Positions 42,001 to 45,000 of a DNA stretch of 58,966 nucleotides are shown in pieces. Position 1 is the first letter of the stretch. Each line of letters opens with the position of its first letter. Made by a program: the position numbers. This stretch comes from Escherichia phage vB_EcoP_phi367, in sequence record PV189406.1; one strand, written 5' to 3'.

Positions 42001-45000
42001 CTGATTCATCACTTACCTCGCTGTCAGTTGTTTTGATTTCCGGTATCCTGCCGCGTAAATGGCTACGTTTGGCAGGCAAATACTTCCACTGCGTTCATCT
42101 TCTTCCTTGCAGCAAAGGCTTCCGAGTGATGCTGCTTTATCTGCTCTGACGCAACCAGAGAGCTTTAGCGCAATTTTTCGTGCCAGTCGCTGCTCTTGCA
42201 TTGCCTGTTCACGTTGAGCCTGTCTGCGTGCTCTGCGGCGATTTCTGGCGTTATCGTCAGCCAGATATGTAATGACTACTGTCATGTTGACCTCCGATGA
42301 TTGACTTTGGCGGTGACGCGCCGGGTGCTTATCTTCCGGTTGCCGTCGTGCAGCTGCACTTCACGTCACCCCAAAGCCAACTACTCTTTGGTTCCCGCAT
42401 TTCGGCGGGACAATCCCATCAATGTTAAAGAGCCTGCCAATCTGTTCCGTTTGGCTTCCAGCGCCCTGCTGATGGCTAAAGAATACTGTAGGTATTTTAT
42501 TGTGTAAATACCCAAGGTATTTATTTTTGGTGAAATAATGATAAGCAAATGAATACAAAGGATATTTATTTTTTCGGTGTCTGCTTGTTCAGTGCTTTTT
42601 ATGCGGGATATGTGAAGTGGATCCCGATAGCTATTGCTGCCGGGATTATAGGTTAGTCAGCGAAGGTTAAGACGAGAATTACCTTAATGATGTCTGCTAC
42701 AACAGACACGGCCATAGATAAACCAAAGACGATCCAAGCCACAGTGATGTCTTCACTACCATCGTATAGAGTTCCGTAATCACTGGTGTAAGGCGTAAAT
42801 GTCGCGCCTTGATACAATAGGTATAAGCTTGATCCATAGAGGATAAATGCAGATATCCCTTGTATTGCTATGATCACCAGAATCATGAAACGAGCTGATC
42901 TATGCGCCCAAGCCTGGCTTATTTTTTCTGATAGAGATTTCGCAATAAAAGCATGCGCTAAGCCGTAAATTGTCGAGATTGCCAACATCCCAAAAAAGCT
43001 TGCTATAGCGGTTCCAACCATAATCGCCCCTTGCGTGATCAAACCAGCCTTAGTTTTGTCTCAATTGCAACGCCTATAATCTTGCAGTTTCCATTGATTG
43101 GCACGAGAGGCCATGCAGGATTAAGTCCCTTGAGGTATTTATTTCCGCCGTCGATTATCAGCTTCTTGAATGTTGCTTCGTTAGAGTCAGAAAGTTTTGC
43201 TATGACCAAGCTGCCGTTGATCGCCTCCCTTCCGGTATCGAAAAGAACGAATGTTCCCTCTGGAATGCTTAACCCAACCGGTGCCGTCATTGAATCACCT
43301 TCCACTTTAAGCCAGAACGCATTACCTTGAATATGCGCGTCAGACTCAAGCCAAACATCTATGTCTTTAATGGTGTATGGTTCGCATGCTTCACACCACG
43401 AGCCAGCCTGGATACTGCTTAACACCGGATACCTCTTTCCTGCTCTGTATTCCCCTGCATACCTTACGTTGGCATCGCTCTTAAGGCTTTCTGCCTGTTC
43501 TGCAACCTTGGCAGCAATTGACTGGCTAAAATCAGCAATTGAGACTTGCAACAAACGTGCAAAACCAGATGCGACCTCAACGTTTAGCGCGTTTCTGCCA
43601 TTAAGATAATGCCCTACCGCTCCTTGGGTGATACCCAGTTCATCAGCGATTGAGTATTGGGTTATTCCCAATTCTTTCTTTTTTGACTCATACAAAGCCT
43701 TAAGCCGCTTAGCGTCTTCGAGCTGTTCTGTCGTCAGTGATTTTTTATTTTCCATAGCTTAATTCTAATAGCTAAGGTACTTAAACTAAAAATACCCTGA
43801 GTATTGATTGCTTTGAATACCTGTAGTATTCTTTGTTCATGGTTAATAACGGAGAGTGCATATGATTCGAATGACACTTGCCGATTACGCCAAAATCCAT
43901 GGACAGGCTAAAGCAGCCAGTGACTTTGGTGTAATCCAGTGCGCTATCAGCAAGGCCATTCTGGCAGGCCGTAACATCATGGTTACGGTAAAGCCTGATG
44001 GCAGTGTGATTGGAGAGGAAGTTCGTCCTTTCCCAAGCAACAAGAAAAACAAATAGTAACACCGCTCTTTAACAGTCATGGTCATCATTCCCGCCGAAAT
44101 GCGGGAATACAACGCGCATAATTTGATGCGCATAACTTCTTATTTGTTAAGGAAATACTTACATATGCAACTTACAAGTACTCGCAAGAAAGCGAATGCA
44201 ATTACAAGCAACATCCTGAATCGAATTGCTGTACGTGGTCAGCGAAAGGTTGCCGACGCGTTAGGGATTAATGAATCGCAAATTTCGCGATGGAAAGATA
44301 GCTTCATCCCCAAAATGGGAATGCTTCTGGCTGTTCTTGAATGGGGTGTTGAAGACGAGGAGTTGGCGGAACTGGCTAAGAAAGTAGCCAGAATCCTGAC
44401 AAAAGAAAAAGCCCCGAAGAACGGCGAATTCTTCGAGGCCTGATGTAGAAAGACTGGATCAATCCACAGGAGTCATTATGACAAAACAACTCAGTCCTTA
44501 CCAGGACAAAATTCACAAACACATACTACGTGATCGCTTCCTGTCCAGCTTCAAGCAGCCTTGTCGATTCCGGGCTGAGTTGGAAAAAGTGAAGCTGATG
44601 CAGAAGGAGAAAGGTCATGAGTAACATATCTAATCTAGCCGAAGCCAGAGAGGCCAGAAGGCTACAACAACCGCATCAAAGCAGCGGTAAGGGGTATGCC
44701 TTGCTGCACCGTAAAATTATGGATGTGCCGTTTTACAAGGACGCAGAAGCAGCGCATCTGTGGGTTCACTTAATCCTCAAAGCAAAGCATACGCCTGAGT
44801 ATGTAATGACTGACGCAGGAGAAATTCTGGTAGGCAGAGGGAAGCTACTTGGCGGTAGAAACTCTCTGGCGTTTGAAACAGGACTCAAACCAGATCGCGT
44901 TCAGTACCTGCTTAGAAAGTTCAAAAAACTCGGCATGATTGACTGGGTTTCACACGGTAAATTATCAGTTTTCTCGGTAGAGAAATATGACGATTATCAG

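Follow-up and report, generated by a model that had tools for sequence, protein, structure and literature searches.

hkaS, a small membrane-protein gene behind the cI repressor of Escherichia phage vB_EcoP_phi367: a candidate superinfection-exclusion gene in the rex slot

The DNA considered here is a stretch of 58,966 nucleotides (nt) from Escherichia phage vB_EcoP_phi367 (sequence record PV189406.1, one strand), referred to below as the window. Its lambdoid immunity region contains a small gene, hkaS (42653..43021, (-) strand), which lies between the cI repressor gene and the early left promoter pL and encodes a protein of 122 amino acids (aa) predicted to cross the inner membrane three times. 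The anatomy of the locus supports reading hkaS as an accessory gene expressed in the lysogen from the slot that lambda gives to rexA and rexB, lysogen expression being deduced from the organization of the operon. An initial reading of the DNA (the original prediction) had proposed the open reading frame (ORF) behind cI as a single-gene determinant of superinfection exclusion or abortive infection. Its position and the type of protein it encodes are the two grounds on which hkaS is a reasonable candidate for a prophage-encoded anti-phage exclusion gene.

The first gene of the operon is cI (43039..43755, (-), 238 aa), which matches the Pfam families Peptidase_S24 (E=5e-24) and HTH_3 (E=8e-10) and is 99.6-100% identical to the cI of phages HK620, mEpX2, and phi296. 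The hkaS frame on the (-) strand extends from either a TTG at 43042 (129 aa) or an ATG at 43021 (122 aa) to a TAA at 42655-42653. The TTG (43040..43042) overlaps the cI TGA as TTGA, and it is this codon that gives the overlap of stop and start described in the original prediction; it is probably not used, and it was rejected as the start since it is not conserved in Salmonella, Hafnia, or other diverged loci. The ATG lies 17 nt after the cI stop in the window and 17-20 nt after it across lineages, a spacing found in 80/80 loci sampled from IMG/VR. A Shine-Dalgarno sequence, AAGGGG (43027..43032, (-)), stands 5 nt upstream of the ATG, and AAGGGG or AAGGA precedes the ATG at the same position in all lineages, diverged loci included. 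The homologues are all 122 aa and begin M-[VI]-G. Because the ATG and its Shine-Dalgarno sequence are kept in every lineage and the TTGA arrangement is missing from the diverged loci, the product is taken to be 122 aa; of the predicted size range of 122-129 aa the lower figure stands and the upper does not. From the sequence, cI and hkaS are closely spaced genes that do not overlap.

The original prediction did not recognize the family, and it is in fact a catalogued one. The ORF in the window is, by sequence, hkaS of phage HK620: the product is 99% identical to HK620 HkaS (AAK28867) and of equal length, and the HK620 record of 2001 annotates the gene as 'unknown'. Residues 1-122 also match the whole of phrog_6534 (profile positions 1-122 of 122, E=2.4e-79), for which PHROG likewise gives the function as unknown. 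The exact protein is found on at least 1000 contigs, on all of which it is labelled 'hypothetical protein'. The immunity-region stretch of the window is 100% identical to that of Escherichia phage vB_EcoP_phi296, and its identity to the corresponding regions of HK620, HK630, HK140, mEpX2, HF4s, and two Shiga toxin (Stx) 2c phages is 99%; the cI-hkaS module is common to HK630, HK140, mEpX2, HF4s, the two Stx2c phages, and vB_EcoP_phi296. Among complete E. coli genomes the module occurs in 146/5426 (about 2.7%), in many hosts and chromosomally in every case.

The hkaS gene is genuine and under purifying selection, as the original prediction of a gene immediately behind cI would have it. Beyond the full-length match to phrog_6534, homologues at 83, 61, 57, 56, 55, and 52% identity keep both frame and length, and the ratio of nonsynonymous to synonymous divergence (dN/dS) is 0.13-0.2 where dS is unsaturated. 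The IMG/VR sample, consisting of the best 80 of 115 hkaS loci (97-100% identity), holds 24 protein alleles, all of 122 aa. These data bear directly on the proposal that hkaS is a non-functional, hitch-hiking ORF that persists only through its position between cI and the left operators. An immunity module that recombination cannot split might be expected to shelter neutral DNA, and no hkaS phenotype is recorded in the literature; however, the proposal is contradicted by the dN/dS values, by 37 residues that are invariant across six lineages down to 52% identity, by the constant length with 0/80 copies disrupted, and by the conserved ribosome-binding site, and it can be given next to no credence.

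The regulatory sites around the operon can largely be transferred from the annotation of HK620, the sequences being identical. The region containing OR3-OR2-OR1, pR, and pRM lies at 43766..43839, with OR1 and OR2 matching the operator consensus; cro and cII are on the far side of OR from cI. The presumed cII-activated establishment promoter pRE is placed at 44149..44188 (-). Downstream of hkaS, pL occupies 42473..42522 (-) with OL1 (42481-42497) and OL2 (42506-42522), an assignment drawn from HK620, from a promoter scan (42508 to 42480), and from the operator pattern. The gene for an N-type antiterminator (42013-42285) follows, beyond pL/OL and nutL.

Six nt after the hkaS stop, RNA folding gives a GC-rich hairpin (42621..42646, (-); AUCCCGG...UCGGGAU), which lacks a U-tract and is a candidate for the end of the cI-hkaS transcript or for a 3' stabilizer. 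Hairpins of unrelated sequence occur at the same place in the Salmonella, Hafnia-type, L007, and Buttiauxella loci, and the one in Buttiauxella (locus L018) is a canonical stem followed by a T6 intrinsic terminator. Between the hairpin and OL2 is a third left operator-like site, AAATATCCTTTGTATT (42552..42567, (-)), a perfect match to the consensus RAATAYC-N4-GTATT that is kept in loci of the same immunity type. In the whole window this consensus is found only at OL1, OL2, OR1, OR2, and 42552-42567, with 0.02 occurrences expected. The third site falls within what is annotated as tIMM in the HK620 record (equivalent to 42541-42571), and the OL3 annotated there (equivalent to 42528-42544) departs from the consensus; judging by these sequences, the left operator and terminator annotation of the HK620 immunity type probably needs revising. 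The consensus sites, the hairpin positions, and the HK620 annotation together give the order pRM/pRE, cI, hkaS, hairpin, OL3-like site, OL2, and OL1/pL.

A promoter scan of the (-) strand predicted no separate hkaS promoter between the start of cI and hkaS, and the 17-nt gap between the two genes is too short to hold one. By analogy with lambda and 434, a cI-hkaS transcript would be made in lysogens from pRM; for 434, reverse transcription PCR showed the pRM transcript reading into hex (PMC3564112). A transcript from pRE would likewise be expected to read through both genes. No further ORF, such as a rexA-type sensor gene, was found between cI and pL. Two other ORFs called in the vicinity were set aside: a 35-aa antisense hydrophobic ORF over the 3' flank of hkaS (42549-42656, (+)) looks spurious, being missing from all diverged loci, and a 65-aa PHANOTATE ORF (42361-42558, (-)) called in the phi296 record is probably spurious as well, because it covers the pL promoter/operators and nutL.

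In every locus examined, including those of Salmonella, Hafnia, Buttiauxella, and others, hkaS is directly behind cI. In 79/80 IMG/VR loci it lies 3' of an S24-type cI and 5' of OL/pL, and the remaining locus is cut by a contig end. The placement of the gene in the rexA/rexB slot of lambda thus holds. The contents of the slot range over rexAB, hex, genes for TPR, Bro-N, or secreted proteins, PDC-M66 and PDC-M24 candidates, or nothing. The slot behind cI is a variable cargo site, and the interval between cI and N has been described as a mosaic hotspot, in which bstA of the Salmonella prophage BTP1 and stk of 933W follow cI and use its promoter (PMC8585504, PMC3564112). Among sampled relatives of the window repressor, the cargo after cI is a secreted 160-aa protein, a PDC-M24-matching pair, a Bro-N protein, a HipA_2+DUF3037 pair, a DUF6414 protein, a single-transmembrane (TM) 131-aa protein, or nothing; the repressors that carry cargo have C-terminal domains 83-91% identical to that of the window cI. 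The HipA_2+DUF3037 pair (locus L108, 3187-4739) matches the PADLOC candidate PDC-M66 A+B (E=1e-18 and 7e-14), and a two-gene cassette with DUF1828 (locus L105, 3256-4562) gives a weak match to the PADLOC candidate PDC-M24. Behind more distant repressors are a TPR protein (Erwinia phage 49), Hex (434, HK446, and Huey), or nothing (OS31, mEp213, and P22).

The association of hkaS with cI is with a part of the repressor. In lineages of the same immunity, cI is 86-95% identical but HkaS only 52-83%; with dS similar in the two genes, dN reaches about four times the cI value in hkaS. In Buttiauxella (L018, 2327-3369) the N-terminal domain of cI is 19% identical to that of the window and the operators differ, yet the C-terminal domain is 88% identical and hkaS follows; in locus L111 (1414-2478) a third N-terminal type is joined to a C-terminal domain 90% identical to that of the window, again followed by hkaS (HkaS 57% identical). 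Both repressors are mosaic, recombined at or close to the linker. Only repressors of this one C-terminal-domain lineage (88-97% identical) are followed by HkaS, and among them are at least three types of DNA-binding domain. Since the N-terminal domains are unrelated and the C-terminal domain is shared, what hkaS accompanies is the 3' half of cI rather than DNA-binding specificity.

Such linkage would suit a protein that modulates lysogeny and induction in the manner of Hex, whose presence in the equivalent slot provides a precedent (PMC3564112): the cytoplasmic face of HkaS would bind the S24 domain of cI, RecA, or FtsH and so tune autocleavage and spontaneous induction. It is consistent with this proposal that HkaS keeps to one C-terminal lineage despite unrelated DNA-binding domains and operators, and that conservation within it is highest in the cytoplasmic loop and the C-terminal tail. 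Physical adjacency, however, suffices to account for the co-travel of hkaS with the 3' half of cI, and HkaS has no similarity to Hex. The C-terminal lineage comprises at least 759 repressor clusters (E<=1e-30; the 120 listed are 80-91% identical) against about a dozen HkaS clusters, so most of its repressors cannot have hkaS, and the sampled relatives have other cargo or none. As most clusters with that domain occur without hkaS, the domain does not need HkaS, and an obligatory functional tie between the two was down-weighted; a role in induction is judged rather improbable.

The protein itself has three hydrophobic segments by hydropathy (approximately residues 2-27, 45-70, and 93-120), and an AlphaFold2 model (mean predicted local distance difference test score of 89) has three long helices (2-29, 41-74, and 89-121), a short helix in the cytoplasmic loop (31-38), and a small beta-hairpin in the periplasmic loop. 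The prediction of at least three hydrophobic helices was therefore sound. The loop of residues 28-44 has a charge of +4 (K28, K33, R41, and R44) and that of residues 71-92 a charge of -4 (D81, D87, E90, and D91). Because the first loop is basic and the second acidic, the positive-inside rule predicts a periplasmic N-terminus and a cytoplasmic C-terminus; topology prediction, which had been suggested as a check on the ORF, thus gave three TM helices oriented N-out/C-in. The model is in keeping with a predicted location in the inner membrane. HkaS has no soluble domain, and the chain ends 2-3 residues after TM3.

Conservation is unevenly distributed along HkaS and peaks in the cytoplasmic loop, where 53% of positions are invariant and the motif K-I-x-Q-x-W-x-H-R-x-A-R-F is found. 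A second conserved stretch, D110-x-x-K113-x-I-x-V-x-T-F-A-D, ends in the invariant TFAD tail at the C-terminus. The intramembrane pair Asp110/Lys113 is invariant, as is Gln54, and TM3 bears a polar stripe formed by S102-S106-D110-K113. The periplasmic hairpin is Tyr-rich and acidic and its loop has the fewest invariant positions (18%); a membrane-proximal motif, Y-L-L-Y-x-G-x-T, is mostly retained, and the distal tip (approximately 79-94) is variable. Among near-identical E. coli alleles the commonest polymorphism is T93S/V94M (39/80 loci), with T93Y also found; these positions are at the periplasmic tip, at the periplasmic end of TM3.

Invariant charged and polar residues within the membrane of a small polytopic protein, together with the TM3 stripe, a slot shared with rexAB, and a predicted N-out/C-in three-TM topology that is also that of class I holins, would be in keeping with a single-protein analogue of RexB that acts by abortive infection. 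In an infected cell, HkaS would open or form an ion path, collapse the membrane potential, and kill or arrest the cell before the invader matures. Against this, HkaS has neither a RexA-like sensor gene alongside it nor a cytoplasmic domain able to sense infection. Nor does it have the charged tail that holins typically carry at the C-terminus, and its hhalign probability is below 1% to both RexB and the P22 holin; an abortive-infection function is considered unlikely. More elaborate, and more doubtful, is the idea of a one-gene counterpart of RexAB belonging to a new fold family, in which Asp110/Lys113 and the cytoplasmic loop would serve as gate and sensor, firing on a phage signal or reading the C-terminal domain of the repressor, and would be wired into the lysis-lysogeny switch; this is a long shot.

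Database searches place HkaS in a very small family. A word-indexed search of 5.8 billion proteins yielded 12 clusters, and an exhaustive profile search of 1.84 billion representatives yielded one cluster and a 44-aa fragment; searches of this size therefore offer no remote relatives to lend a function. Of 185,579 species-representative genomes, one has the gene, that of a Buttiauxella. The family draws its members from E. coli, Salmonella, Enterobacter, Hafnia, Buttiauxella, and metagenomes of gut or environmental origin, and is confined to lambdoid prophages. Nothing usable was found in Pfam or NCBIfam (the best Pfam score, 17.6 bits, fell short of the cut-off of 27.3), and a sequence search of the PDB gave zero matches. 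The HHpred-type comparison that had been suggested with RexB, SieB, Imm, and Sp, extended to SieA, Hex, and the P22 holin, gave hhalign probabilities below 1% throughout. By sequence, HkaS is outside the RexB, SieA, SieB, Imm, Sp, Hex, holin, and PADLOC families.

The proposed course of events is as follows. Trapped in an immunity module of the HK620 type, with cI on one side and OL/pL on the other, hkaS would be an accessory ('moron') gene. It would form the second cistron of the repressor transcript, which would start at pRM in the lysogen and at pRE while lysogeny is being established, and it would be translated from a ribosome-binding site of its own. The 122-aa, three-helix product would be placed in the inner membrane, N-out/C-in, and there interfere with the entry of an invading genome, in the way of P22 SieA, T4 Imm, and HK97 gp15 but without kinship to any of them. 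As HkaS lacks a soluble domain, is predicted to be in the inner membrane, and has a variable periplasmic tip, an entry block of the SieA/Imm/gp15 kind is the most economical model. That HkaS shields the lysogen against other phages at the inner membrane, with genome entry the likeliest step, is put forward tentatively by analogy with such proteins, and its probability is taken to be somewhat short of even.

The case for exclusion draws on the slot, most of whose characterized occupants work against other phages (rexAB, stk, hex, and bstA; PMC3564112, PMC8585504) and which in relatives holds the PADLOC candidates, and on a pattern of change with the flavour of an arms race, namely the roughly fourfold dN of hkaS relative to that of cI, the variable periplasmic loop, and the T93/V94 polymorphism at the end of TM3. 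Several findings weigh on the other side. These searches revealed no kinship in sequence, profile, or fold to known exclusion or defence proteins: no PADLOC-DB 2.0 family matched at E<=1, and fold searches with the HkaS model returned only generic helical bundles. No phenotype or functional data were found in the literature on hkaS, HK620, and mEpX2, even though HK620, HK630, HK140, and mEpX2 are phages kept in laboratories; papers on the LF82 'Gally' transcriptome, the svsR small RNA (sRNA), Tai, and HepS were considered, and hkaS is not their subject. The cargo of the slot is not all defence, as Hex also stabilizes the repressor (PMC3564112). The variable tip is weak evidence, loops being more variable than helices in most membrane proteins, and since the best-conserved segments of HkaS face the cytoplasm, an intracellular partner fits at least as well as periplasmic contact with a phage.

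The breadth of hosts is also compatible with a lysogenic-conversion factor unrelated to phages, which might modulate a transporter or sensor, confer stress tolerance, or provide immunity to a pore-forming bacteriocin. Expression with the repressor, as deduced above, would make HkaS present in every lysogen generation; the gene is under purifying selection and has been kept by 146 E. coli genomes, which come from many hosts; and other cargo of the slot (Hex, which has a signal peptide, and the secreted protein of 160 aa) is envelope-directed without a clear defence signature. Immunity proteins of the E1 colicin type are three-TM proteins of about 110 aa, but their orientation is opposite to the N-out/C-in arrangement predicted for HkaS, which counts against this explanation. 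So do the lack of a Pfam or NCBIfam match to colicin/microcin immunity or other families, the absence of a toxin gene adjoining hkaS, and the confinement of the family to lambdoid prophages. A conversion function of this sort is given only a small chance.

Catalogued since 2001, hkaS fits an established class of accessory genes co-transcribed with a prophage repressor, in which it is a sequence orphan. Few parts of a lambdoid prophage are transcribed as strongly as the interval between the repressor gene and pL, which has repeatedly been a source of exclusion and defence genes (rexAB, stk, hex, and bstA). About 2.7% of complete E. coli genomes carry hkaS, and phages of the Shiga-toxin type as well as laboratory phages are among its carriers. 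If HkaS excludes phages, its family would be a new one of minimal exclusion proteins of the inner membrane, it would offer a compact, genetically tractable model for a block to genome entry, for which isogenic phages (HK620, mEpX2, and HK630) already exist, and it would help to explain the phage-resistance patterns of Shiga toxin-producing E. coli and commensal lysogens; if it tunes induction, it would bear on the stability of Stx-type prophages.

Several other features of the window can be recorded. Region 51807-54524 contains tRNA genes (Met-CAT, Arg-TCG, and Arg-TCT), then the sRNA STnc100 (52160-52365), and then a 645-aa DUF1737/SASA esterase (NanS-p-like). This setting is the usual surroundings of the stx genes in Stx phages; the gap in it here is about 530 bp and leaves no room for stxAB, and vB_EcoP_phi367 looks like a toxin-less Stx-type phage. 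In the pL operon, two ORFs between N and cIII (40916-41386, (-), 156 aa, and 41785-42012, (-), 75 aa) have no Pfam match and flank ral (41452-41652), and a strong match to the lambda cIII thermoregulator RNA element (40680-40738, (-), 88 bits) fits a lambda-like cIII gene. The early-left/integration part includes an Rfam match to sRNA-Xcc1 (33785-33874, (-)) that scores 65 bits, above the gathering score of 53. A 2430-aa ORF (21250-28542, (+)) carries the polyvalent-protein domains LPD5, LPD1, MuF_C, and LPD38.

Among known systems, BstA of BTP1 and Stk of 933W are lysogen-expressed defence proteins whose genes, like hkaS, lie downstream of cI, and which use the cI promoter (PMC8585504, PMC3564112), but both are large soluble proteins, a DNA-associated abortive-infection protein and a tyrosine kinase, respectively, and are unrelated to HkaS in sequence and type. 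The hex gene of 434, found also in Sf6, HK446, and Huey, is the second cistron of the pRM transcript behind a related cI (52% identical). Hex has a role in exclusion and in protection of the repressor, blocking RecA-stimulated cleavage of its own repressor (PMC3564112); it has an N-terminal signal-peptide-like segment and no TM bundle, whereas HkaS is predicted to have three TM helices, and the hhalign probability between the two is 0.15%.

With lambda RexB the likeness is one of slot and operon order: cI, accessory membrane protein, tIMM, and OL. RexB, which excludes T4 rII and other phages by depolarizing the membrane, is a protein of 144 aa with four TM segments in the same scan and needs the sensor RexA; HkaS has 122 aa and three segments and stands alone (hhalign probability 0.57%). 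The original prediction had called HkaS far smaller than RexB or SieB, which overstates the difference from RexB; SieB is 192 aa. SieB of P22 and lambda is encoded in the pL operon beyond N, whereas hkaS is on the cI side of pL, and the hhalign probability is 0.11%. Class I holins have the three-TM, N-out/C-in topology that is predicted for HkaS, but they also have a charged cytoplasmic C-terminal tail that HkaS lacks and are encoded in the lysis cassette, not the immunity region; no holin PHROG was matched, and the hhalign probability to the P22 holin gp13 is 0.35%. For immunity to colicins or microcins, Pfam and NCBIfam offered no match and no toxin gene is nearby.

According to the notes in the T4 record, Imm and Sp are small envelope proteins that stop incoming DNA; their genes are located elsewhere in the genome than the hkaS slot, and hhalign probabilities to HkaS are 0.13% and 0.07%, respectively. 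HK97 gp15 is likewise a small membrane or periplasmic entry blocker. P22 SieA shares no detectable sequence relationship with HkaS (hhalign probability 0.29%, the P22 protein being the one of three SieA sequence types compared directly, and the exhaustive profile search of 1.84 billion representatives giving no relatives outside the HkaS family), is longer (162-164 aa against 122), and is expressed from its own promoter in immI near gene 16 rather than from the repressor operon. It is nonetheless small and without a soluble domain, with three TM helices predicted for it as for HkaS, and it is expressed by the prophage. SieA is a three-TM inner-membrane protein that blocks DNA delivery via the ejection proteins, to which escape mutations map (PMC10883804), and, by this analogy, might be the best model for how HkaS works.

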